Under the pieces are notes generated by a model. That model made no database searches. It saw only the letters and a list, made by a program, of their open reading frames with translations, and was not told the origin of the DNA. Positions 3,305 to 51,450 of a stretch of DNA of 64,000 nucleotides are shown here, piece by piece. How positions within the stretch are numbered: position 1 is the stretch's first letter; each line of letters opens with the position of its first letter. Origin of the DNA: an uncultured bacterium (GTDB lineage Bacteria > Lernaellota > Lernaellaia > JACKCT01). Both the position numbers and the translations under genes were made by a program. Location of the stretch: positions 4,860-68,859 of the forward strand of contig CAZQAE010000012.1 of the NCBI GenBank assembly GCA_964591275.1. The letters are read 5' to 3'.

Positions 3305-4125
3305 TTATTAAGTTCCTTCATGGCTCGTTCCTTGATCAACTGGAGTTCATCCACGAACTCGGGCCGGGACTCCTCGTGAAAAACCCCAATGGGGATGACG
3401 TCTTTCTTCTCGTCGTCGCTGAGTTTTTTGTATTGTTCGTATTTTACGCATTTTTTCTTATAAACATCCAGCATATCCACTGGGCTCTTGAAGGAATTTT
3501 TGCGGCCATATGCCGTCCAGCAGTCGCCGGCTACGTCCACCACGGAAAAGCCCTTGTGCGTGAAGGCCTGTGTGAAGATTTTGTCCATCTGCATCACGTG
3601 ATAGGCGGTGGTGCGCGCAACAAATGTAGCGCCGGCGGCCACGCCCACCGCCACGGGGTCAAGCTCGTTTTCCACGTTGCCGTAGGGTCCCGTGGAGGTA
3701 AAGCTCCCGAAGGGCGTCGTCGGCGAGGTCTGCCCGCCGGTCATGCCGTAAGTTTTGTTGTTGAAGATGATCAGGTTGATGTCGATGTTGCGCCTGCAGG
3801 CATGGAGGAAGTGATTGCCGCCGATGGCCAGAGCGTCGCCGTCGCCGGATACGATGATGACTTTCAAATAGGGTTTGATGACCTTGACGCCCAGCGCGAA
3901 GGCCAGGGCGCGACCATGCGTGGTGTGGAGCGTGTTCGCATCCACGTAGCCGGGCAGGCGGCTGGCGCAGCCGATACCGGACACAATGACCAGATCGTCT
4001 TTTTCCCAGCCCATTTTGTGCACGGCGCGCAAAATTCCCTTGGCGATAATGCCGTGGGAGCATCCAGGGCACCAGATATGGGGAAGTCGATTTTCGCGCA
4101 GATAATAGTTGTAATCGAAAGCCAT
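3301..4125 (-). CDS. 2-oxoacid:ferredoxin oxidoreductase, beta (TPP-binding) subunit
   Basis: N-terminal WCPGCSHGII Cys motif plus a TPP-binding GDG...N region (VSGDGDALAIGGNH). Confidence 0.85.
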   Translation of the reverse strand: MAFDYNYYLRENRLPHIWCPGCSHGIIAKGILRAVHKMGWEKDDLVIVSGIGCASRLPGYVDANTLHTTHGRALAFALGVKVIKPYLKVIIVSGDGDALAIGGNHFLHACRRNIDINLIIFNNKTYGMTGGQTSPTTPFGSFTSTGPYGNVENELDPVAVGVAAGATFVARTTAYHVMQMDKIFTQAFTHKGFSVVDVAGDCWTAYGRKNSFKSPVDMLDVYKKKCVKYEQYKKLSDDEKKDVIPIGVFHEESRPEFVDELQLIKERAMKELNK

Positions 4126-8595: not shown

Positions 8596-8935
8596 CCGAG
8601 ATATTTGGGGTCGTCCAGTCCCAAAAACTGCCTGCCTAAGAATGTAGGAGCGGTTTCCAAACGCAATTGTGGCACAGTCGTCCTCGGCTATGAATGTAGG
8701 AGAGGCATTCCTGCCTCGACCAAACAGTCATGACAAGAATGTCGTTCCCGCAACGCCCCCCCCCCAACTGGTCTGCGTGCGTGCGTAAACTGATGAAGAA
8801 TGCCAAAAAAATGGCGACACAATATTTGGGGACGTCCATTAGTTTGGTTATTTGCTGAGCGAAAGTTTTTGGGTTTTGCCGATGGAGTTTCATAAGCGGA
8901 CAATTAGTGGAATTGAATGTCCCCAAATATCTCGG
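8596..8935. repeat. MITE-like composite repeat region bounded by 15 bp perfect inverted repeats (CCGAGATATTTGGGG)
   Basis: ccgagatatttgggg at 8596-8610 and its reverse complement at 8921-8935; an internal direct copy aatatttggggacgtcc at 8821-8837. The region also carries a copy of the palindromic family-1 element (8692-8750). It is non-coding, between the GT2 stop and the mutS2 start. Confidence 0.45.
8692..8750. repeat. palindromic dispersed repeat family 1, copy A (GAATGTAGGAGnG...GACAAGAATGTCGTTCC)
   Basis: gaatgtaggagaggcattcctgcctcgacc + aaaca + gtcatgacaagaatgtcgttcc; a truncated left arm also lies at 8639-8664. Confidence 0.55.
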
Positions 8936-20796: not shown

Positions 20797-21891
20797 ATGT
20801 TTAAGGCCATCGGAAATTTTGCGACGGCCAATACTCCGCGGCGAGGAGTGGCCCTTCTAATCGTGCTGATGGTCACCACCATTCTCACGGTCGTCGTGCT
20901 GGATTTCGCGCAATCCACGCGTGTCAATTTCTACATCGCCTCCAACATTCATAACGGCATGAAAGCCTATTATATGGCGAAAAGCGGCATCCAGGTCGCC
21001 GAGGGTTCGCTGCTCAGGGATATGCAAAAGACCAAAGACGACCACTTGGACGAGGACTGGAACAATCCGCTTTTCAGCTTCATCCCCTTGTCGGATACCG
21101 AAACGATCTCCGTCAACATTACCGATGAGTCCGGCAAGTTCAACGTCAATCGCATGGTGAGCGGCACGGGAAATGTCAAGCAAACGGAAGTCGACATTTT
21201 CAGAAAACTGCTGGAACTGCTGGAACTCGACCCGGCGACAGCGGATGCCGTGGCCGATTGGTTGGATATCAACGAGGACGCCTTCAACGGCGCCGGCACG
21301 GAGGATCAGTTTTACGGCTATTCGGTTTCGCCGGGAGGAGCTTATCAGTCTAAAAACGGCCGATTGTCCAGCCTGGCGGAATTGAAACTCATCAAGGGGA
21401 TCAATAGCGACGTTTTCAAAAAACTCTCTGAAGTCTGCACGATATATACGGACGCCAAGCTGAACATCAATACGATCAATGACACGGTTTTAAGCGCCAT
21501 CATTTTGTCCATTGACGAAAAAGCCGACGCGCAAAAAACCATTTCGGCTATCACGGCCTATCGCGATACGCCCGAGCAGCACTTTGAAAAAAGGTCTTTG
21601 CGCGGACAGTTGATGGAGGCCGGCGTCGATCCGCGAATGGCCGCGCGCCTGCGTCGAAAGCTCGGCACATCCAGCAGATATTTTAGCGTTGATGTTACAG
21701 CCAACGTCGGGCCGACGGTGAAATCGGTTCGCGGCGTCGTGAAAAGAAGCAAGAAAAAGGTCAGCCTGGTTTACTTCAGACCCGGAGAACTTTTAAATCC
21801 GCCCAAGGCGCCCGATGACCTGGGGGCGATGGCCGATATGTTGGGCGCCGCGCAGGGCGCCGGCATCAACATTGGCGATTTCATGCAGTGA
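20797..21891 (+). CDS. gspK: minor pseudopilin GspK
   Basis: N-terminal TM segment (RGVALLIVLMVTTILTVVVLDFA) with a GspK-like body; position immediately after gspJ. Confidence 0.75.
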   Translation: MFKAIGNFATANTPRRGVALLIVLMVTTILTVVVLDFAQSTRVNFYIASNIHNGMKAYYMAKSGIQVAEGSLLRDMQKTKDDHLDEDWNNPLFSFIPLSDTETISVNITDESGKFNVNRMVSGTGNVKQTEVDIFRKLLELLELDPATADAVADWLDINEDAFNGAGTEDQFYGYSVSPGGAYQSKNGRLSSLAELKLIKGINSDVFKKLSEVCTIYTDAKLNINTINDTVLSAIILSIDEKADAQKTISAITAYRDTPEQHFEKRSLRGQLMEAGVDPRMAARLRRKLGTSSRYFSVDVTANVGPTVKSVRGVVKRSKKKVSLVYFRPGELLNPPKAPDDLGAMADMLGAAQGAGINIGDFMQ

Positions 21892-23783
21892 CGCACATAC
21901 CGCGAAAAACCATCGCCTACCTGATCGTCGCCGCTCTTGCGCCCGCATGGCTGGCTGTCTATTCGCTCATCCAGTTGGACGAAAAGCTCACCTGGCAGTG
22001 GATGATCGACGCGGCGGCATTTTGCGCGTTGTATATGACTGTTTTTGTCATGGCCCCGAAAAAGAAGTGGCTTCGTATTACTTTCGCGCTGATTGTGGCT
22101 GGCTGGTTCGTGTTTTTCCACGTGGGAAATGTCGCGTATTACAAGTTCTACGATACCTGGGCGCACATCCATATTTTCGACCAATGGAAAGATTCCTTCG
22201 CTCTGGGGAAATCGGTTTCTGAACTTCTTGGCCTGTGGGATTGGCTTTTCGGCGTTCTCGCCCCTCTTTTGATAGCCATCGCATCTTCGCTGATCAACGT
22301 CGATCCAAAAAGAAAAATACTGGCGCCCGTTTTCCTGATCAGTGCTTTCGCCCTGGTTATTGTTCATTACATAAGCGTCGGATCGCCTGTCGGCACGAAA
22401 CACCAGGAACCGATGATGTATTTTATCAGGGCGCCGATTGATGCGCGCGTTGACGCTTACAGGAAAAGGAAAGGAATCGAGCGCGTCGCCGCCAACCTGG
22501 ACCGCTACTACCCCATCGACCACGCAATTTATCAGCGAAGTCAAAATGCCAACCCGCCATTCGCCTCGGAGCCGGTTTCCGGCACGCAGGCTCCAAAAGA
22601 CTCCGTCAACATCGTCATCATCATGATGGAGTCGGTTGTCGCCTCGGCATCCGGGGCCTGGGGCGCAAGTCCTTCCTATACGCCGAATTTGGACGCATTG
22701 GCCGCGAACGGACTCATGGCGAAAAACTTTTACGCCAACGGGAGCCAGACCGTGCGCGGGGAACTGGCGAGTCTGTGTTCCTATTATCCGAACCTGTCCG
22801 GCGGACCAATTTATTCAAGGTATCATAAAACAGAGATGATCTGTCTGCCGGAAATCCTTGGCTCCTTTGGCTATCAGACCATGTGGATATCGTCTTATAA
22901 AAAAACCTATAACAAAAAAAGCCGCTTTCTTCGCCGACATGGCGTCGATGAAATTTACGACATCAAGGACATGCCGCCCGGCTATCAAAAAATCGGATGG
23001 GGCCCTGCCGATGAGAATCTGTTCGAGTCAGCGGCGACGCGCCTGGATGCGGCAACTGAGCCTTTTTTCGCCGAGATCATGACCCTCTCGAACCATCATC
23101 CTTTCCATTGGGATTATCCCAGCAACGCAACCGCGCCGCGCGGCGGGCATTCAGAGCCGTATGAAAACTTCATGCGCGGGATTTTTTATACGGACTACGC
23201 AATAGGCAAATTCTTTGAAAGCGTGCGTGATAGTGAGTGGTTTGCCCGAACCATTTTCGTGATCGTAGGCGACCACGGCATATGGCTCTTCCCGGAGGAT
23301 TCCGCAAAAGGTCCCGTCGAAAAACAGGAAGCCTATTTTCGCGTCCCGATGGTTATCTATGCGCCGGATTTGCTCGAAGCGCAGGTTTTTGAGCAGGTTG
23401 CATCGCAAGTGGATATTGCTCCGACGGTCATGGATATTATCGGTGCCAGGGCGCCAAACACATTTGTCGGGCAAAGCCTTCTTGCGCCTTCCGGCACCCC
23501 TCCTTTCGCCGTCATGCTGCATGACAGGCAATGGAACATCAGGCGCGGCAACGAGTATTGTTATGATGTCGGCGAGCAATGTTTTTACGAACACATTCCG
23601 CGCTGTCCGAAGGGATACAAAAAGGACCTGGGCCAGCCCGTTTCGTGTTTTCATTTTGAAGATGATTTATTGAGCCATTCCGAAAAGTGGCGGCAAAAGC
23701 CGCTAATAAAAAAGAATTTAGGGCTTATGTCTTTTGCCGAGGATTTGACAGCCTATCATCACAGGCTGTTGCTACGGAAGTAG
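21888..23783 (+). CDS. LTA-synthase/phosphoglycerol-transferase (sulfatase-superfamily) membrane protein
   Basis: Five N-terminal TM helices, then an alkaline-phosphatase-superfamily domain (IMMESVVAS...GSQTVRGE, SNHHPF, VGDHG). No CxPxR sulfatase motif, so LtaS/MdoB/EptA-like. The GTG start overlaps the gspK stop as GTGA. Confidence 0.7.
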   Translation: MTHIPRKTIAYLIVAALAPAWLAVYSLIQLDEKLTWQWMIDAAAFCALYMTVFVMAPKKKWLRITFALIVAGWFVFFHVGNVAYYKFYDTWAHIHIFDQWKDSFALGKSVSELLGLWDWLFGVLAPLLIAIASSLINVDPKRKILAPVFLISAFALVIVHYISVGSPVGTKHQEPMMYFIRAPIDARVDAYRKRKGIERVAANLDRYYPIDHAIYQRSQNANPPFASEPVSGTQAPKDSVNIVIIMMESVVASASGAWGASPSYTPNLDALAANGLMAKNFYANGSQTVRGELASLCSYYPNLSGGPIYSRYHKTEMICLPEILGSFGYQTMWISSYKKTYNKKSRFLRRHGVDEIYDIKDMPPGYQKIGWGPADENLFESAATRLDAATEPFFAEIMTLSNHHPFHWDYPSNATAPRGGHSEPYENFMRGIFYTDYAIGKFFESVRDSEWFARTIFVIVGDHGIWLFPEDSAKGPVEKQEAYFRVPMVIYAPDLLEAQVFEQVASQVDIAPTVMDIIGARAPNTFVGQSLLAPSGTPPFAVMLHDRQWNIRRGNEYCYDVGEQCFYEHIPRCPKGYKKDLGQPVSCFHFEDDLLSHSEKWRQKPLIKKNLGLMSFAEDLTAYHHRLLLRK

Positions 23784-25737: not shown

Positions 25738-26190
25738 ATGATCGATGAAAATCTCGCCTTCGCTATTCCCATGCTGGAACAAGGCGTGGACATCCTGCAA
25801 AAGATGGGCATGAAGGTGGTCGGCCTGGAGAAAAACAAAGCCAGAATCAAGATGCCCTTTGAGCCGAATCGCAATCACATCGGCAGCGCCTACGGGGGAT
25901 CGCTTTTTTGTCTGGCCGAGTTTTCCGGGGGCGTAATCTTCGCAGCCTCATTCGACTTCGCAAAGTATTTTCCCCTCGTCAAAGAATTTTCTATTCGTTA
26001 TCGCCGTCCGGCAACCACGGATATGTATCTCGATGTCGCGCTATCGCCCGAGGAGGTTGAGCGCATTAGCCGGGAGGCGGATGAAAAGGGCAAGGCCGAT
26101 TATTCTCTGGACCTCGAACTCAAAGACGAAAGTGGGCAGGTCTGCTGCATCGCGCGTGGGACATGGCAGCTAAGGAAGATTCCGACCTAA
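25738..26190 (+). CDS. hotdog-fold thioesterase-like protein (PaaI/YiiD-C family)
   Basis: 150 aa; GSAYGGSLFCLAEFSGGV is typical of the 4HBT/YiiD C-terminal hotdog domain. Confidence 0.5.
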   Translation: MIDENLAFAIPMLEQGVDILQKMGMKVVGLEKNKARIKMPFEPNRNHIGSAYGGSLFCLAEFSGGVIFAASFDFAKYFPLVKEFSIRYRRPATTDMYLDVALSPEEVERISREADEKGKADYSLDLELKDESGQVCCIARGTWQLRKIPT

Positions 26191-26221: not shown

Positions 26222-26611
26222 ATGAAACCACTTCGGATTTTATTCGCTGATATTGGCGATGATCATGCGGGACGTGAGTCAAAGAACCTGGCCAAAATCC
26301 TGCGCGACGCCGGCTTTGAGGTGATTCCGCTCGGATTCGGGTTTAGCGCAGGCGAGATTGCTTTGGCCGCACGCCAGGAGGATGTGGATGGTCTTTGCCT
26401 GTGGCGAGGGGGCGATATCGAAAAACTGAAAAGTTATTTGAATCAAAGCGATGTCGAGCTTCTCGAATCCATACCGGTTTTTCTGTGCGGAATGAGTGCG
26501 CAAGACCTCACGCCGGTGAAATGGCATGGATCAGTCCCTATCATCTTCAAGAAAGATGAATCGCTATCGACAATCGCCGAACGAATAAGCCATGAATTAA
26601 AAAAACGATAG
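26222..26611 (+). CDS. small cobalamin-binding-domain-like (Rossmann) protein
   Basis: ILFADIGDDHAGRESKNLAKILRDAGFEVIPLG resembles a B12-binding domain, but the DxHxxG register is off by one, so this is a tentative call. Confidence 0.35.
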   Translation: MKPLRILFADIGDDHAGRESKNLAKILRDAGFEVIPLGFGFSAGEIALAARQEDVDGLCLWRGGDIEKLKSYLNQSDVELLESIPVFLCGMSAQDLTPVKWHGSVPIIFKKDESLSTIAERISHELKKR

Positions 26612-26630: not shown

Positions 26631-28022
26631 TCACCCTTTTTCTTTGCCTTGCCAAATCAACATTGACTTCGCTTCAGGGGTATAGTCGCCGTCGCCTTGG
26701 TGCACGATCAGCGGCGGCAGATGCGTGGTTTTACTCCGCGATCCCACAATCCCGCTTACGAGTAGACACTTGGCTTCGACCTTTTCCTTGGGCAGGACGC
26801 GGCGAATTTTACAGGCGCCGATTTTAGCTTCGCGCAGCAGGGTCGTTAACTCCTCTTGCCTGGACGCCAAGTGGATCAGATAAATCTTTCCGCCTTCGCG
26901 CACAAGATATTTCATTCCGCCAATTAACTCGCCAAGCGTCAGTCCCACCTCGTGACGGCTGGCGGCTCGCGTTTCATCGGGACTGATATGCCCTGTCCCC
27001 ACGGGGAAATATGGTGGATTGCTGACGGCGATATCGAAGCTTCCCTTTGCGAAAACATTGCCTGCGCGGCGCACATTTTCGTAAACAATGCTGGCGCGAT
27101 CTTCGAGTGAGTTGGCCAATAATGAGCGCCTCGACATTTCCGCCAGATCCCGCTGATATTCGATTCCGGTGACATCGTGCGCGCCCTGGCCCGCGAGGAT
27201 GAGGGGGATGACGCCGCTGCCGCTGCCCAGGTCGATGATTCGGTCGCCCAGATCAAATTCTACGAAGGCCGCCAGAAGCAAAGGGTCGATGGAGTAACGG
27301 AAACCCGTGAGCTTTTGAATGATACGCAAAGGACCGTGCATGAGATCCTGCAAATTTTCATCGTGGCCGACGGTGATTTCAACCAGAGGACGCCCGAGAA
27401 CTTCTTCTATCTTTTCCGGTGGAACATCGCCTGATCTGAGTAGCAGCGGAGGATCGGTAGAAATATCAATGACCGTGCTGCCTCGCGAAGGCGCCAGCGG
27501 TCCGGCGTCGAATAATACCAAGTCCGGTTCATTGCAAAAGTAATTCGCAACATCATCGGCGCAAAACGATGCGGGCATCCGCGCGGGATTGGCGCTTGTG
27601 GCGACCAACGGAACGCCGGCCATTTCCACCAAACGCCGAGAAGTTTTTGCGCCGGGAACACGAACGCCGATCGTTGGTCCCCAGCCTGTCGCTTCGCCGA
27701 TAAAATCACTGCGAGCGCGCCCAACGAGAGTTAAAGGACCAGGCCACAGCCGTTTTGCCAATGGCTCAAAGAACGCTGGCGGCGGGTCAAAGGCGGCGCG
27801 GGCCATACGTGCATCGGCCACCAGGCAGGGCATAGCCTTTTTTGATTCGCGGCTTTTCAGTTTGTTGATGCGGGCCAGAGCCTTGGGCCTGTCCAATCGG
27901 GCAAGAAGGCCGTAGAGAGTTTCTGTCGGGAAAATAATGATCCGTCCCTGGTCGAGGAGCTGGGCCGCGTGTGTCAGGGCCTTGCCGCCGGGCGTATCGG
28001 GATCAATCTTGATTCTATCCAT
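26631..28022 (-). CDS. fusion protein: L-threonylcarbamoyladenylate synthase (TsaC/YrdC domain) + NPPY class I methyltransferase (COG4123/TrmN6-like)
   Basis: N-terminal half IIIFPTETLYGLLARLD...KSRESKKAMPCLVA = YrdC fold. C-terminal half FRYSIDPLLLAAFVEFDLGDRIIDLGSGSGVIPLILAG...FDIAVSNPPYF = SAM MTase with an NPPY motif. Confidence 0.7.
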   Translation of the reverse strand: MDRIKIDPDTPGGKALTHAAQLLDQGRIIIFPTETLYGLLARLDRPKALARINKLKSRESKKAMPCLVADARMARAAFDPPPAFFEPLAKRLWPGPLTLVGRARSDFIGEATGWGPTIGVRVPGAKTSRRLVEMAGVPLVATSANPARMPASFCADDVANYFCNEPDLVLFDAGPLAPSRGSTVIDISTDPPLLLRSGDVPPEKIEEVLGRPLVEITVGHDENLQDLMHGPLRIIQKLTGFRYSIDPLLLAAFVEFDLGDRIIDLGSGSGVIPLILAGQGAHDVTGIEYQRDLAEMSRRSLLANSLEDRASIVYENVRRAGNVFAKGSFDIAVSNPPYFPVGTGHISPDETRAASRHEVGLTLGELIGGMKYLVREGGKIYLIHLASRQEELTTLLREAKIGACKIRRVLPKEKVEAKCLLVSGIVGSRSKTTHLPPLIVHQGDGDYTPEAKSMLIWQGKEKG

Positions 28023-28091: not shown

Positions 28092-28598
28092 CTATTTTTC
28101 CCCCTTGATCGCCTTTTGCAGCTTCACGTTCTTTTTCCTGACGCCTTCCCGCATCGATTTTTTATGATCGTCAAGAATTTTCGCCACGGTCGGATCACCG
28201 ACGGCGAGAATCTGCGCCGCCAGCACCGCAGCGTTTACAGCGCCGAAATCTCCCACCGCCACTGTTGCAACCGGCACGCCGGGAGGCATTTGCACTGTGG
28301 CGAGCAGGGCATCGAATCCTGCCAGGGGCGTTGCTGCCATAGGGACGCCGATGACGGGCAGGGTGGTGTGCGCCGCGGCGGCGCCGGCCAGATGCGCCGC
28401 ACCACCGGCAGCGGCAATGATCACGCCGAATCCCTTCGCCTTCGCCTTTTTGACGAAATTAGCCGTCGCGTCCGCGCAGCGATGCGCGGATAAAACACTG
28501 ACTTCGTATGGCAGGCCGAATTTTTTGAGTTGATCCGCGCATTTTGACATGACAGGCCAATCGGAATCCGACCCCATGATGACCGCTACTTTTTTCAT
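28092..28598 (-). CDS. purE: N5-carboxyaminoimidazole ribonucleotide mutase PurE
   Basis: [17 protein letters not shown]...[10 protein letters not shown] signature; probable start at the internal ATG (MKKVAV). Confidence 0.85.
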
Positions 28599-28637
28599 TG
28601 TGTCTCCATTATTCGCTTGGCGTGCCATTTGGCCACA

Positions 28638-29909
28638 CTATAAGTGTTTTTTCGCTTTTGCGCCGATGTCCGTGCGGCAATGCGCTCCTTTAAAGCCGAT
28701 TTTGCCCACGGCGGCGTACGCGTTGGCAATGGCCTCAGGGATCCCTGCGCCCAGGGCCGTTACGCCCAGAACGCGCCCCCCGCTTGTGACTACGTTGTCG
28801 CCGTCGAGTTTCGTGCCCGCATGAAAAACTTCCGCGTTTGGACCGAAATCCGAATCGAGACCCGTGATGACTTTGCCTTTCTCGTAAGCGCCGGGATAAC
28901 CGCCCGATGCCATTACCACGCACACCGAAGGCTCTTGCAGCCATTCGACGCTGTGCTCGTGCAAAGTCCCATCGGCGCACGCCATGAGCAGCGGTACGAT
29001 ATCCGACTTCATGCGAAAAAGAAGCGGCTGCGTTTCGGGGTCGCCGAAGCGCGCGTTGAACTCAAGAACTTTGACCGCGCCGTTTTCGATCATGAGACCG
29101 GCGTAGAGAACGCCCTGGTAGGGGGCGCCCTGATCGGCCATCCCCGCCACGATCGGCTTCATGATGCCGGTCATGATGTCGTCGAAAAGGGCCGGCGTGA
29201 CGACAGGCGCGGGTGAGTATGCGCCCATGCCGCCCGTATTGAGCCCTTTGTCGCCGTCGAACACGCGTTTGTGATCCTGGCACGTCGCCAGGGGCATGAC
29301 GGTTTTGCCGTCGCTAAAAGCCAGGAAGCTGGCTTCCTCGCCATGTAGAAATTCTTCCACGAGGACACTATCGCCCGCGTCGCCGAAATCGCGATCCAGC
29401 ATGATGCTTTTTAGGCCCGCTTTCGCCTCGTCGAGATTTTCACAAATGAGAACGCCTTTGCCCGCGGCCAGTCCATCGGCTTTCAGAACGACCGGAAAGC
29501 CGAAACGGTTCAGTGAGGCCAAAGCTTTTTCGTATTCCGTGAAACTTTCGGATTGGCCGGTGGGGACTCCGTATTTTTGGCAAATCTGCTTCGTGAACGA
29601 CTTGCTGCCTTCAAGCTGCGCAGCCGCTTTTTTTGGTCCGAAAGCCTTAAGGCCTCGCTCAAAAAGCAGATCGGCCAACCCGTTCACCAAGGGTCCCTCG
29701 GGACCGATGACGGTCAGATCAATCGAATTATCCCGGGCAAAATCGGCCAGCGCCATGATGTCGCCCGCGCCTATGTCGATGTTTTCAGCGACCTGGGCCG
29801 TTCCCGCGTTGCCCGGCGCGCAGAATATCTTTTCGACCAGCGGGGATCGGGCGATTTTCCAACACAGCGTATGTTCACGACCGCCGGAACCGACGACGAG
29901 TATTTTCAT
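28638..29909 (-). CDS. purD: phosphoribosylamine--glycine ligase PurD
   Basis: MKILVVGSGGREHTLCWKIARSP and an ATP-grasp body; start at the internal ATG. Confidence 0.9.
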   Translation of the reverse strand: MKILVVGSGGREHTLCWKIARSPLVEKIFCAPGNAGTAQVAENIDIGAGDIMALADFARDNSIDLTVIGPEGPLVNGLADLLFERGLKAFGPKKAAAQLEGSKSFTKQICQKYGVPTGQSESFTEYEKALASLNRFGFPVVLKADGLAAGKGVLICENLDEAKAGLKSIMLDRDFGDAGDSVLVEEFLHGEEASFLAFSDGKTVMPLATCQDHKRVFDGDKGLNTGGMGAYSPAPVVTPALFDDIMTGIMKPIVAGMADQGAPYQGVLYAGLMIENGAVKVLEFNARFGDPETQPLLFRMKSDIVPLLMACADGTLHEHSVEWLQEPSVCVVMASGGYPGAYEKGKVITGLDSDFGPNAEVFHAGTKLDGDNVVTSGGRVLGVTALGAGIPEAIANAYAAVGKIGFKGAHCRTDIGAKAKKHL

Positions 29910-29944
29910 TTTGGACCTCGGAAAAGATGTGCGTTGCGTATCAT

Positions 29945-30922
29945 TCAATACGGTGATTCGATGTGGTTTTCTCTAAAGAATTCTTTAAGCTTTTTCAAGA
30001 CTCTGGTTTCTATTTGCCGAACGCGCTCGCGCGTAATGCCGTATCTATCGCCGATATCCTGCAGGGTTTGCGGCGGATCGCCGAGCATCCTGTTTTGATA
30101 AATATCCAGTTCCTTGCCTGATAACGTGTCTTTGAAATTGAGCATCGCCTTGCGGTATATCGCATCGAGTTGTTCGCCGACCAGGGCCTCATCCTGTAGA
30201 ACTTCGGTCGAAGGCGTCATGTCGCCCATCGTTGTCGTGGAATCCGCTGTCAAGGGCGATTCAAGACTCAACTCATTGCGCGACAGGCGTTTGTCCATCT
30301 CAATGACATCTTTTTCGCTGACCTCAAGCCGCTCGGCCAACAATTTCGTCGTAGGCGAGAAACCTTGCGCTTCGAGCCGCTCCTTTTCCTTCTTCAGATT
30401 GAAAAAGAGCTTGCGTTGTGCCTGGGTTGTGCCGATTTTGACCATCCGCCAGTTGTTGAGAATGTACCGATAAATATATGCCTTGATCCACCACGCGGCG
30501 TAACTGGAAAGTTTGACGCCCTTGAAGGGGTCGAATTTTGAGACCGCTATCATCAATCCGATGTTCCCCTCCTGAATCAGGTCCATCAGGTTGATAAAAG
30601 CCCTCTGGTAATCCATGGCGATTTTGACGACCAGCCGCAGATTGCTGGTGATGAGTTTCGCCGCCGCATCCTGGTCATTGTTTTCGTGAAGTTTAACGGC
30701 GAGGTCATATTCCTCATCTCTGGTCAACAGAGAATAGCGACCGACGCCTGACAAATAGGCTGAGAGGCTGCTGACGTGGACAAGGGATTCGCTGGATTTG
30801 GAATCCGAAGGATCATCGAAAAGTTTCCCGCTTGATTTTGCCGTACCAGATGGACTCTCGTCTTCTTTGTCGAGGACTTCAGGATCAATCGCATCATCTT
30901 TTTTTCTCTGTTTTCTCACCAT
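29945..30922 (-). CDS. rpoH: RNA polymerase sigma-32 (heat-shock) factor RpoH with extended acidic/Ser-rich N-terminus
   Basis: RpoH box QRKLFFNLKKEKERL; regions 2-4 of sigma-70 (DLIQEGNIGLM, the C-terminal HTH TLQDIGDRYGITRERVRQIE); about 40 extra N-terminal residues. Confidence 0.8.
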   Translation of the reverse strand: MVRKQRKKDDAIDPEVLDKEDESPSGTAKSSGKLFDDPSDSKSSESLVHVSSLSAYLSGVGRYSLLTRDEEYDLAVKLHENNDQDAAAKLITSNLRLVVKIAMDYQRAFINLMDLIQEGNIGLMIAVSKFDPFKGVKLSSYAAWWIKAYIYRYILNNWRMVKIGTTQAQRKLFFNLKKEKERLEAQGFSPTTKLLAERLEVSEKDVIEMDKRLSRNELSLESPLTADSTTTMGDMTPSTEVLQDEALVGEQLDAIYRKAMLNFKDTLSGKELDIYQNRMLGDPPQTLQDIGDRYGITRERVRQIETRVLKKLKEFFRENHIESPY

Positions 30923-32543: not shown

Positions 32544-32574
32544 TCATACCTCATACTTCAAACTTCATAACTCA
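32544..32574 (-). repeat. 3'-end motif family 2, copy 3 (ATGAAGTTTGAAGTATGAGGTATGA on the minus strand)
   Basis: Starts 5 nt after the TGA stop of the minus-strand FGE-fold gene, sense to that gene. Confidence 0.6.
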
Positions 32575-33450
32575 TTGCGCGGCGCGGACGCAGCGAAATC
32601 CGACAAGGTCAATGGCCACGTTATCCTGTATCCAGAACCGGTCCGAGGCCCGCATGAAGGATGCGATGCCCGAGACGGCGCCGCCGCGAAGGATATGCCC
32701 TGTACCCTCGGAAGGTCCTGAAGGATCCTGTCCGGGGCTTTGCGCGTAGTACTGCGCGTCGTAGGAGTCGTTGACCCACTCGCGGATATTTCCGAGCATG
32801 TCGTAGAGGCCGAAATCGTTTGGCTCCTTTTGACCCACTGGCTGGGGTGTGTTTTGCGAATTGTCCTTATACCATGCGATGTCATTGAGGCAGTCATTGT
32901 CGTCGCCGCAATAGTATTTCGTTGTTGAATTCGCCCTGGCTGCGTATTCCCATTCCGCTTCCGTGGGAAGGCGACCGTCCATCGCCTGGCAAAATAGTTT
33001 GGCGTATAGCCAAACGACGTTTTCCACCGGACAATCCGAGCATTCGCCATACTGACTGGGATTTTCACCCATCACTTCAAAGAACTGACTCTGCGTGATT
33101 TCCGACGCCGTCATTTCCATAGGGGATATTGTTACAGTGTGAACCGGGCTTTCGTCTTCCGCGCAGATCGTGTCGCCGGCGGAACACCCCATCTCGAAAG
33201 CGCCGCCCGCTATTGGCATCCACTGAAGCTCCGTCGTGCCGTATCCGAAATCGTCGTCATCATCATCATCGTCGTCATCTCCATCGTCTTCCTCATCGTC
33301 ATCGTCGCCGGAGCAGGCCGACATCAAAAACAATGAACACGCAACGATCAAAGTTGCGGCCAGGGTGAATTTTTTAAAAAGGCGGATCATGGCATACCTC
33401 GCGAAAGTGTTATTGGCCGGATGCTCCGGCGAAAAATAAGGGCAATCCAT
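32572..33450 (-). CDS. FGE-sulfatase-fold (SUMF1-like) lipoprotein with poly-Asp linker, lacking catalytic Cys
   Basis: Signal + lipobox (LMSACSGDDDDEEDDGDDDDDDDDDDF); GRLPTEAEWEYAARA and a C-terminal GFRCVR; no Cys in the region homologous to the FGE active site. Confidence 0.6.
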   Translation of the reverse strand: MDCPYFSPEHPANNTFARYAMIRLFKKFTLAATLIVACSLFLMSACSGDDDDEEDDGDDDDDDDDDDFGYGTTELQWMPIAGGAFEMGCSAGDTICAEDESPVHTVTISPMEMTASEITQSQFFEVMGENPSQYGECSDCPVENVVWLYAKLFCQAMDGRLPTEAEWEYAARANSTTKYYCGDDNDCLNDIAWYKDNSQNTPQPVGQKEPNDFGLYDMLGNIREWVNDSYDAQYYAQSPGQDPSGPSEGTGHILRGGAVSGIASFMRASDRFWIQDNVAIDLVGFRCVRAAQ

Positions 33451-33677: not shown

Positions 33678-34886
33678 ATGTTTTGTTTTCGATATGGTCT
33701 ATATTTTCTAATTGTGGCTCTTTCTGTTTTCGTCGGCCTTGCGTCGGTCGCCTGCACGAGTGCTTCCGGCGGCGACGATGATGACGATGATGGCCAAGAC
33801 CCCCAAGATGACGACGCTGACGATGACGGAGATGATTGCATCAACTGTTCGGGCACAGCCGAATGCACAGAGGCTCTGGGAGCAGGGTGGGTCTGCATCA
33901 ATGATTGCTGCGTCGATTATGGCGCGGACGACGATTTGAACGACGATGTCGATGATGACGCCGACGACGATGTCGATGACGATGTCGACGACGACGTGGA
34001 TGACGATGTCGATGATGATGTCGATGATGACGCCGATGACGATATCACAGAAGGCTTCGTGGAAATCCAATCCGGTGGGTTTTCTATGGGCAGCCCCTGG
34101 GATGAGGGAGGAAGGGACAGCGATGAAGATGATTATGATGTCACGCTGACGCGGTCCTTTGAAATCATGGCCAAGGAAGTTGCACAGGTTCGTTTTGAGG
34201 ATCTTATGGGATTCAATCCGAGCACCTTTGGCGATTGCGGTGATTTCTGCCCGATCGAAACAGTGAGTTGGTACGACGCGCTGGCCTACGCCAACAAACT
34301 GTCCGCGGAATACGGCAAGCTGTCGTGCTATATCCTTTCCGATATCCGATGTTTTAACGGCTTTTACGACACGGCGCCTTTCTATTGTCGGGATCACGGA
34401 GGCATTTACGAAGCGACAGTCGCCCTCAATAGCGTTGATTCCGTGTATGAGTGCGCGGGCTATCGCCTTCCCACGGAAGCTGAGTGGGAATACGCGGCCA
34501 GAGCCGGTTCAGAAACGGCGTTTTACAGCGGCGACATCACCCGGTTTTTTTGCACGCCCATGGACCCTGTTTTAAGCGAAATCGGGTGGTATTGTGGCAA
34601 TGCGGACGAGCCGAATCCCATCGGCGGGAAAATCCCCAACGACTGGTGGATCTATGATGCCAGCGGCAATGTATACGAATGGGTTTGGGATTTGTACGAC
34701 ACGTACCCCGCCGACCATGAGACAGACCCGGAAGTGTCGGAAGGTGCGTTTCTCGAAAATCGCGCTAGTCGCGGCGGCAGTTGGCGGCAGACGTCTTCAA
34801 AATGTCGTAGCGCCAATCGTGCTTCTCGCGCTCCCAATGAAAGAGCTGACGATCTCGGTTTCAGGCTGGTTAGGACCCTGGATTGA
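33678..34886 (+). CDS. FGE-sulfatase-fold (SUMF1-like) lipoprotein with poly-Asp tracts and Cys-rich module
   Basis: Lipobox VACTSASGGDDDDDDG...; GYRLPTEAEWEYAARAGS; C-terminal GGSW...LGFRLVR; only one of the two FGE catalytic cysteines is present (SSKC). Confidence 0.65.
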   Translation: MFCFRYGLYFLIVALSVFVGLASVACTSASGGDDDDDDGQDPQDDDADDDGDDCINCSGTAECTEALGAGWVCINDCCVDYGADDDLNDDVDDDADDDVDDDVDDDVDDDVDDDVDDDADDDITEGFVEIQSGGFSMGSPWDEGGRDSDEDDYDVTLTRSFEIMAKEVAQVRFEDLMGFNPSTFGDCGDFCPIETVSWYDALAYANKLSAEYGKLSCYILSDIRCFNGFYDTAPFYCRDHGGIYEATVALNSVDSVYECAGYRLPTEAEWEYAARAGSETAFYSGDITRFFCTPMDPVLSEIGWYCGNADEPNPIGGKIPNDWWIYDASGNVYEWVWDLYDTYPADHETDPEVSEGAFLENRASRGGSWRQTSSKCRSANRASRAPNERADDLGFRLVRTLD

Positions 34887-51377: not shown

Positions 51378-51450
51378 AGGCGGGTAGCTCAGTTGGTAGA
51401 GCAACGGCCTTACACGCCGTGGGTCGCAGGTTCGAGCCCTGTTCCGCCTA
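51378..51450 (+). tRNA. tRNA-Val (anticodon TAC)
   Basis: Cloverleaf read by hand: acceptor AGGCGGG/TCCGCCT, D arm GCTC-AGTTGGTA-GAGC, anticodon arm ACGGC-CTTACAC-GCCGT, T arm GCAGG-TTCGAGC-CCTGT; the 5' A-T first pair is unusual. Confidence 0.75.

Follow-up and report, generated by a model that had tools for sequence, protein, structure and literature searches.

In a 64,000-nucleotide (nt) stretch of DNA from an uncultured bacterium (assembly GCA_964591275.1, contig CAZQAE010000012.1; the whole stretch is called the window below), one minus-strand gene encodes a 463-amino-acid (aa) protein in which a TsaC-type YrdC domain is joined to a methyltransferase domain of the COG4123 (TrmN6/TrmM/YfiC) type, a family of class I enzymes that use S-adenosylmethionine (SAM). 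The most probable reading, in our judgment, is that of a genuine bifunctional protein for the modification of tRNA position 37, derived from merged operon neighbors and endowed with two independent activities. What carries this reading is the identity of the two domains, the conservation of their motifs, the purifying selection that acts on both halves, the vertical inheritance of the fusion within its close clade, and the existence of unfused intermediate states in related genomes. A preliminary description, made from the sequence alone, had already placed TsaC/YrdC and an NPPY methyltransferase in one polypeptide; a single open reading frame (ORF) of 463 aa bears this out, and its strand, which had not been given, is the minus strand. 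The protein and its parts are as follows.

26631–28022, minus strand: whole fusion ORF, tsaC::trmN6/trmM-like, 463 aa plus stop codon (ORF listing, Pfam, NCBIfam, full-length homologs, AlphaFold2 model)
27408–28022, minus strand: TsaC-type YrdC domain, predicted L-threonylcarbamoyladenylate synthase, residues 1–205 (PF01300, TIGR00057, folds)
27363–27407, minus strand: linker, residues about 206–220 (…PEKIEEVLGRPLVEITVG…; comparison with the unfused locus L085)
26631–27362, minus strand: COG4123 (TrmN6/TrmM/YfiC-type) class I SAM methyltransferase, residues 221–463 plus stop codon (sequence and fold matches)

The Fusion Gene and Its Relatives

The reading frame begins with an ATG, and this start is supported by homologs that begin at the same methionine in the alignment. 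Comparison with profiles placed both halves in the families that had been anticipated: residues 22–198 match Sua5_yciO_yrdC (PF01300, E = 1.3e-38), residues 249–338 match the MTS methyltransferase domain, and TrmN is the best methyltransferase match in NCBIfam. The E-values of the two Pfam domains are far beyond chance. The AlphaFold2 (AF2) model of the protein has a predicted local distance difference test (pLDDT) value of 90.6 and a predicted template modeling (pTM) score of 0.75.

Intact full-length homologs were found in a search of 5.8 billion proteins, with identities of 93% (P0001, JGI, on two contigs), 55% (P0002, ENA), 49 and 48% (P0003 and P0004, from Logan and NCBI), and 46% (P0005, NCBI). 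With HMMER, 1.84 billion cluster representatives were scanned exhaustively; this brought one more full-length fusion (P0121, 47% identity), as well as at least 12 more distant clusters, defined at 50% identity, whose members are 445–499 aa long, cover both halves, and are 27–38% identical to the window protein. A profile search of the 5.8-billion-protein set, run on candidates preselected by a word index, yielded no further fusions. The architecture is thus rare: the 1.84 billion representatives contain at least 14 clusters (50% identity) that have it, in agreement with the earlier remark that a covalent fusion is not the common arrangement. All carriers are uncultured metagenome-assembled genomes (MAGs) or metagenome contigs, labeled Deltaproteobacteria, Myxococcaceae, Pseudomonadota, or simply “bacterium”; besides the genome of the window, MAGs with the fusion include GCA_019912885.1, GCA_027493875.1, GCA_053940445.1, and JGI 3300083231. 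The conservation counts given below rest on an alignment of 19 fusions that are 26–93% identical.

Comparison of the window with the locus of its closest relative (L003, dS about 0.24) gives a ratio of non-synonymous to synonymous substitution rates (dN/dS) of 0.134 in the YrdC half and 0.164 in the methyltransferase half; the value for the linker is 0.089. Both halves are kept by purifying selection.

One seemingly standalone methyltransferase, P0006, is in fact a broken fusion, since the YrdC half lies directly upstream of it in another frame (locus L001). In this region (4546–8825 of L001, GCA_027493875.1), the sigma factor gene is also split in two, purD is uncalled, and a frameshift interrupts the fusion, so that the public annotation of P0006 as “methyltransferase domain-containing protein” hides a TsaC–methyltransferase fusion.

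A promoter and terminator scan of the region gave 6 sites against 3.3 ± 1.7 in shuffled sequences, none of them above background. This includes a promoter-like site near the domain junction (27382–27354), whose 9/12 match is within background.

The N-Terminal TsaC-Type Domain

All the motifs quoted in the preliminary description are present in the protein: PTETLYGL at residues 32–39, K56-S-R58, T142-S-A-N145, DLGSGSG at residues 264–270, and NPPY at residues 335–338. The first three belong to the YrdC half, which covers positions 2–178 of the 178 positions of PF01300 and contains the two parts of the catalytic tetrad.

27849–27857, minus strand: K56-S-R58, the K-x-R half of the tetrad (19-fusion alignment)
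27588–27599, minus strand: T142-S143-A144-N145, the S-x-N half of the tetrad with the preceding signature Thr (alignment, DNA read directly)

The K-x-R/S-x-N tetrad has been used as the inclusion filter for the family, and the residue that precedes S-x-N is Thr or Ser in single-domain TsaC (Thr138 in E. coli numbering) and Pro in Sua5 (PMC10321239). In all 19 fusions, P32, T33, K56, W93, P94, R121, T142, S143, A144, N145, S182, R196, and G198 are invariant. The protein has no Pfam match to the SUA5 domain (PF03481) and, in keeping with the TsaC type, no HY linker, and the Sua5-specific residues Pro59, Asn62, and His67 are absent from the aligned YrdC half. Similarly, each of the 19 fusions matches both TIGR00057 (best E = 1.6e-47) and TsaC type 1 in NCBIfam; the score of the window protein itself against TIGR00057, 120.8 bits, is 2.4 bits under the cut-off of 123.2.

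The closest relatives of known structure are TsaC2 of Thermotoga maritima (9d3h, 105 bits), Sua5 of Pyrococcus abyssi (6f87, 100 bits), and Sua5 of Sulfolobus tokodaii (2eqa, 90 bits), compared with 50 bits for a solved YciO and 46 bits for E. coli TsaC. Foldseek likewise matched the N-terminal domain to Sua5, TsaC2, and E. coli YrdC, and the YrdC half clusters with TsaC/Sua5 sequences in a neighbor-joining (NJ) tree. On its sequence features, therefore, the N-terminal half is best assigned as a TsaC-type domain.

The arginine of K-x-R, R58, is kept in 16 of the 19 fusions and is Gln in P0003, P0004, and P0121. These three relatives form one subclade of the fusions and keep all the other invariant residues; the substitution corresponds to nt 27849–27851 of the window. 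The synthesis of threonylcarbamoyl-AMP (TC-AMP) may be altered or lost in this subclade, and if so, another tsaC would be expected in the genomes concerned. Within the 64-kb window there is neither a second PF01300 gene nor any other gene for N6-threonylcarbamoyladenosine (t6A) or for the modification of A37.

A different YrdC architecture was seen in P0287, P0290, P0291, and P0295 (about 315–330 aa), which combine PF01300 with PF01627 (Hpt phosphotransfer) in place of the SUA5 domain. Either the combination is real, and then unusual, or PF01627 has been assigned by mistake to a divergent SUA5 domain.

The C-Terminal COG4123 Methyltransferase Domain

The methyltransferase half contains class I motifs and, upstream of them, a segment typical of the family.

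27285–27317, minus strand: family signature Q236…G240-F-R242-Y-S-I-D246, upstream of motif I (invariant residues)
27213–27233, minus strand: motif I, D264-L-G-S-G-S-G270, SAM binding (alignment, DNA read directly)
27009–27020, minus strand: motif IV, N335-P-P-Y338 (NPPY) (alignment, DNA read directly)

NPPY is the catalytic motif of amino-group N-methyltransferases. In the signature segment, which has the form GFRYSxDxxLL, residues Q236, G240, R242, D246, L250, and F253 are invariant in all 19 fusions, and the segment aligns with those of Listeria 3lpm (FSFSIDAVLLAKF), TrmM (FNFTLDSVLVARF), and Atu0636. G268 of motif I is likewise invariant, with G266 and G270 conserved in at least 90% of the fusions. 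E288 (the acidic residue of motif II), N335, P336, P337, G344, and G378 are invariant as well; position 338 is Y, F, or H.

The preliminary description had judged this half to be closest to COG4123, and both sequence and structure confirm that judgment. Alignments made with phmmer run from end to end, with 135 bits for Listeria 3lpm (residues 10–249 of 259), 92 bits for TrmM (7wm5/7wm6; residues 14–234 of 248 in 7wm6), and 55 bits for Atu0636 (2ozv), at about 27–31% identity to the solved members of COG4123. In a Foldseek comparison, the C-terminal domain of the AF2 model superposed on Mycoplasma capricolum TrmM bound to S-adenosylhomocysteine (7wm6) with a template modeling (TM) score of 0.92 and a root-mean-square deviation of 1.7 Å, on 3lpm with a TM score of 0.92, and on 2ozv with 0.82; the identity of 7WM5 and 7WM6 as TrmM is taken from the Foldseek description. 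Among the NCBIfam methyltransferase models, TrmN (NF047853) is the best match at 53.2 bits, against an equivalog cut-off of 350. TrmN (best E = 2.4e-23) ranks above PrmC (best E = 1.1e-15) in 19 of 19 fusions, and none of them reaches the cut-off for E. coli-type TrmN. These comparisons place the methyltransferase half in the TrmN6/YfiC/TrmM family, on the branch that resembles TrmM and 3lpm, and not among the equivalogs of E. coli-type TrmN.

Standalone relatives of this half are common, at about 37–43% identity, and include one in Syntrophotalea carbinolica. Two close relatives of this half are themselves fused: P0159 (621 aa) joins COG4123 to RsmI (TP_methylase plus RsmI_C), a 16S rRNA 2′-O-methyltransferase, and P0129 (394 aa) joins a DUF559 endonuclease-like domain to COG4123.

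The sole tRNA gene of the window encodes tRNA-Val(UAC) (51378–51450, plus strand), with the anticodon loop C-U-U-A-C-A-C and A at position 37. This is the species methylated by E. coli TrmN6. The gene lies 23 kb from the fusion, and the proximity is probably coincidental.

Linker and Origin of the Fusion

The unfused counterpart of the gene is found in locus L085, where purE is followed by a tsaC of 214 aa (ending in …EIVLGSLLRADK*), a 23-nt spacer that carries a GGGAGGG ribosome-binding site, and a methyltransferase gene of 259 aa (starting MTEQ…EIQDLLHGELVILQK). Compared with this arrangement, the linker of the fusion corresponds to two earlier termini put together, the C-terminal tail of TsaC and the N-terminal tail of the methyltransferase. 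Members of the close clade have a conserved linker, and across the junction the AF2 model has a helix at residues 202–209 and pLDDT values of 77–94.

Other stages of association are found in related loci. In the Polyangia-type MAG loci L016 and L010, the order is purD, purE, tsaC, a DUF1015 gene, and the methyltransferase gene. The distance between tsaC and the methyltransferase gene is 1.4–3.3 kb across L016, L010, L004, and L048, and 1.4–1.6 kb in the last two. The DUF1015 gene (PF06245, E = 1e-81) between tsaC and the COG4123 gene lies at 3343–4707 in L016 and at 8653–9960 in L010, so that a protein whose function is unknown has genes of tRNA modification as its neighbors. In locus L084, purE and tsaC are present without a methyltransferase, and the next gene is a convergent one for a peptidase.

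In NJ trees built separately for the two halves, the clade of the window is monophyletic (99 and 97% bootstrap) and has the same internal topology; the fusion has therefore been inherited vertically within it. The TsaC of L085 is sister to this clade, and in the YrdC-half tree L084 falls within it. These trees resolve the close clade and leave the deep nodes unresolved, so that they do not decide between one and several origins of the fusion. The most probable route to the present gene is the loss of a stop codon and a short spacer between the operon neighbors tsaC and a trmN6/trmM-type gene, leading to read-through.

Proposed Function

According to the reading that we prefer, the N-terminal domain would be the TsaC of the organism and would convert threonine, bicarbonate, and ATP into TC-AMP, from which TsaD/B/E, encoded elsewhere, would transfer the threonylcarbamoyl group to N6 of A37 in ANN-decoding tRNAs (t6A37). 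The C-terminal COG4123 domain would transfer a methyl group from SAM to N6 of A37 in another group of tRNAs, for example tRNA-Val(UAC), for which the window has a compatible gene. The two predicted active sites would work independently, and the main effect of the fusion would be to ensure co-expression. This reading is supported by the HemK–YrdC/Sua5 fusion of Mycoplasma, a documented analog with separable domains (see below).

If both domains are active, the protein would connect, as a naturally occurring “Rosetta stone”, the enzymes behind two modifications of N6 in tRNA A37, one universal (t6A) and the other sporadic (N6-methyladenosine, m6A); the same link appears as an operon neighborhood in Myxococcota-like MAGs. 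It would also offer a compact construct for asking whether two mutually exclusive modifications of A37 are coordinated. In the likeliest case, that of independent domains, the gene is a tidy example of the fusion of operon neighbors, with limited wider consequence. The case also bears on annotation: pipelines either split such fusions, as happened to P0006, or label them only “Sua5/YciO/YrdC family”, and the methyltransferase function is lost.

Comparison with Known Systems

With TsaC (YrdC, COG0009), the fusion shares the YrdC fold, the tetrad, the Thr before S-x-N, the lack of a SUA5 domain, and the slot next to purE. It differs in having an additional C-terminal methyltransferase of 240 residues and in a sequence for which the TsaC-like domain of Sua5/TsaC2 (90–105 bits) is a closer match than E. 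coli TsaC (46 bits). With TrmN6/YfiC and TrmM, it shares the class I fold, motif I, NPPY, the GxRxSxDxxLL segment, the C-terminal beta extension, and alignment over the full length. However, the domain is only about 27–31% identical to the solved members and is joined to TsaC, and its substrate is a predicted one.

The nearest documented analogs are MG259 of Mycoplasma genitalium and MPN362 of Mycoplasma pneumoniae, which are HemK–YrdC/Sua5 fusions (PMC4615747). In M. pneumoniae, solely full-length MPN362 is detected, and its HemK domain is dispensable while its YrdC/Sua5 domain is essential (bioRxiv 10.1101/2025.02.06.636790). Both these proteins and the fusion described here combine a TC-AMP synthase domain with an NPPY SAM methyltransferase of translation and probably originated from operon neighbors. 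In Mycoplasma, however, the methyltransferase is PrmC, which acts on the glutamine N5 of release factors, and is N-terminal, whereas here it is of the COG4123 type, predicted to act on tRNA adenine N6, and is C-terminal; the lineages are unrelated. A TsaC fused to an NPPY methyltransferase is thus a kind of protein that is already known, and what differs is the methyltransferase family and the domain order.

Sua5 (YrdC plus SUA5), HypF and TobZ (YrdC plus Kae1-like), and the Pandoravirus TsaN (TsaD–TsaC–SUA5–TcdA) also link a YrdC domain that makes an acyl-adenylate to a partner. In these proteins the partner consumes the adenylate or aids its synthesis, whereas in the fusion the partner is expected to catalyze the chemically unrelated SAM-dependent methylation. 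Reviews list SUA5, Kae1-like domains (HypF, TobZ), TsaN, and HemK as partners of TsaC (PMC10321239, PMC4615747), and no report of a TsaC–TrmN6/TrmM fusion was found in the searchable literature. The present case extends the range of partners beyond SUA5, Kae1-like, HemK, and phosphatase domains. Finally, TrmO (YaeB/TsaA), the methyltransferase that makes N6-methyl-t6A (m6t6A) at A37, would be a functional analog only if the fusion produced m6t6A; it is a class VIII enzyme with a single-sheet beta-barrel (PMC4132733) with no homology to the Rossmann-type class I domain of the fusion.

Alternative Interpretations

Several observations weigh against the bifunctional reading. The fusion has been retained for long, or formed repeatedly, in at least 14 diverged clusters, which could point to a selective advantage other than co-expression. 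PF01300 includes YciO, which keeps an active site like that of TsaC and yet is not isofunctional with it (PMC12506659), so the motifs alone do not prove TsaC function; moreover, neither half passes the strict equivalog test (120.8 against 123.2 bits for TIGR00057, 53 against 350 for TrmN), and R58 is replaced by Gln in three relatives. The YrdC half could accordingly be a YciO-like or degenerate paralog that serves the methyltransferase as an RNA-binding or regulatory module, with the canonical sua5/tsaC elsewhere in the genome. This we hold to be unlikely, on the indirect evidence that the score of the half against Sua5/TsaC2 is about double that against YciO (105 and 50 bits), that the tetrad and Thr142 are invariant in most members, and that its dN/dS is 0.13. 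The context also differs, since an rnm gene context has been reported for yciO (PMC12506659) and the fusion sits instead in the purE–tsaC slot, which is occupied by bona fide Sua5 genes in many phyla and, within the clade, by the lone tsaC of L084. Slightly less unlikely is a substrate other than A37 for the methyltransferase, such as rRNA, another tRNA position, a protein, or a small molecule, in which case only the fold would be shared with TrmN6/TrmM. The low TrmN score would fit this possibility, as would the presence in COG4123 of the uncharacterized Atu0636 (2ozv) and Listeria 3lpm and the fusion of one relative (P0159) to RsmI. However, only two members of the family have been characterized, E. 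coli YfiC and M. capricolum TrmM, and each forms m6A37 in tRNA; the match to TrmM is nearly complete, from the N-terminal signature to the C-terminal extension; and linkage to another A37 enzyme fits a role on tRNA.

The preliminary description had also suggested a coupled or novel A37 route such as m6t6A-like chemistry. On this reading, the methyltransferase domain would turn t6A37 into m6t6A37, as a class I NPPY enzyme replacing TrmO; in a variant of the idea, the fusion would physically coordinate the choice between t6A and m6A at N6 of A37 by partitioning ANN-decoding and other tRNAs between the two, perhaps by holding the anticodon loop while the labile TC-AMP is handed to TsaD. In its favor, N6 of A37 is the expected target of both domains, the two genes are fused, adjacent, or neighbors in an operon in several lineages, and the pTM score gives a hint that the domains have a definite arrangement. 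In Staphylococcus aureus, m6A37 is found not only on tRNA-Val(UAC) but also on the ANN decoders tRNA-Ile(CAU) and tRNA-Met(CAU) (PMC13443448). Competition between t6A and m6A for one class of tRNA is therefore possible, and a lineage-specific linkage could reflect coordination. Nevertheless, a real coupling at N6, whether as a class I route to m6t6A or as partitioning, strikes us as improbable, a little more so than a YciO-like paralog, and the suggestion of m6t6A-like chemistry found no support. E. coli YfiC/TrmM makes no m6t6A, and a trmO deletion has none (PMC4132733); the Mycoplasma HemK–Sua5 domains are separable; the fused methyltransferase, about 37–41% identical to standalone family members, has the same invariant motifs as its relatives, without special divergence, and superposes closely on TrmM; and the linkage is explained by a pre-existing gene order, in which the pair can be unfused and 23 nt apart (L085) or tsaC can stand alone within the clade (L084). 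Two further possibilities concern the identity of the C-terminal half and the reality of the gene. Assignment to PrmC/HemK, which the preliminary description had named as a refuting outcome and which would make this the same fusion as in MG259/MPN362, might be prompted by the NPPY motif shared with PrmC, by a partial match to TIGR03534 (41 bits), and by the documented TsaC/HemK fusion (PMC4615747). It was rejected and is very improbable: the scores are far below the cut-offs (41 against 199 bits for TIGR03534, 26 against 115 for TIGR00536) and below TrmN in all 19 fusions, no PrmC chain in the PDB was matched by sequence at E ≤ 1e-3, and the PrmC structure 2b3t ranked 34th, with a TM score of 0.57 compared with 0.92 for TrmM. 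In addition, the COG4123 N-terminal signature is present, the N-terminal helical domain of PrmC is absent, and the domain order is the reverse of that in Mycoplasma. An assembly or frameshift artifact joining two genes, also considered in the preliminary description, was likewise rejected, and we give it next to no weight. It could be argued from the adjacent unfused version in L085 and from the halves in different frames in L001; however, unbroken single ORFs, 26–93% identical, are found on many independent contigs drawn from four data sources, conservation and purifying selection extend to the linker, and the broken calls at neighboring genes suggest that the frameshifts are in L001 and not in the window.

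Genomic Context

Upstream of the fusion lies a string of genes on the same strand.

28092–28628, minus strand: purE (5-aminoimidazole ribonucleotide [AIR] carboxylase), directly upstream of the fusion (PF00731, E = 4.6e-58)
28638–29948, minus strand: purD, upstream in the gene string (Pfam)
29945–30922, minus strand: sigma-70 family gene, 325 aa, with regions 1.2, 2, 3, and 4, upstream in the gene string (Pfam)

The order sigma-70 gene, purD, purE, fusion is found in the window, in L003 (93% identity), in L002 (46%), and in L001. The sigma-70 gene overlaps the start of purD by 4 nt and is an unusual operon partner for genes of purine biosynthesis. A scan of a genome collection, with an alignment of seven sequences as query, returned mostly standalone tsaC/sua5 genes among the matches listed, which give context rather than a complete census and do not include the genomes of the closest relatives. 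Among the 87 loci collected (L001–L087), purE lies directly upstream of the YrdC gene (within 250 nt, same strand) in 31, which span Deltaproteobacteria, Nitrospirota, Nitrospinota, Acidobacteriota, and others and mostly contain genes of ordinary Sua5 length. These include the loci around the fusion clade (L001–L003 and L084–L087) and the distant fusion P0163. In one protein, P0100 (428 aa), YrdC and AIR carboxylase domains are combined. Both enzymes, PurE and TsaC, use CO2 or bicarbonate.

On the 3′ side, the fusion converges with two small plus-strand genes: a 129-aa ORF without a Pfam match (26222–26611), whose L003 ortholog has a weak B12-binding match, and a gene for a YiiD_C/DUF4442 thioesterase-like protein (25738–26190). 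Only 19 nt separate the stop codons of the fusion and of the 129-aa ORF, and no terminator was detected there.

Elsewhere in the window are a sulfatase gene and two formylglycine-generating-enzyme (FGE-sulfatase) genes (21888–23783, 32572–33450, and 33678–34886), with a C25 peptidase gene nearby, as well as a complete type II secretion cluster at about 11.5–21.9 kb, MutS2, and an FHA–sigma-54 activator. Such a gene content fits a lineage of the kind named for the carriers of the fusion. The sulfatase/FGE and secretion genes serve solely as a marker of the lifestyle of the organism.

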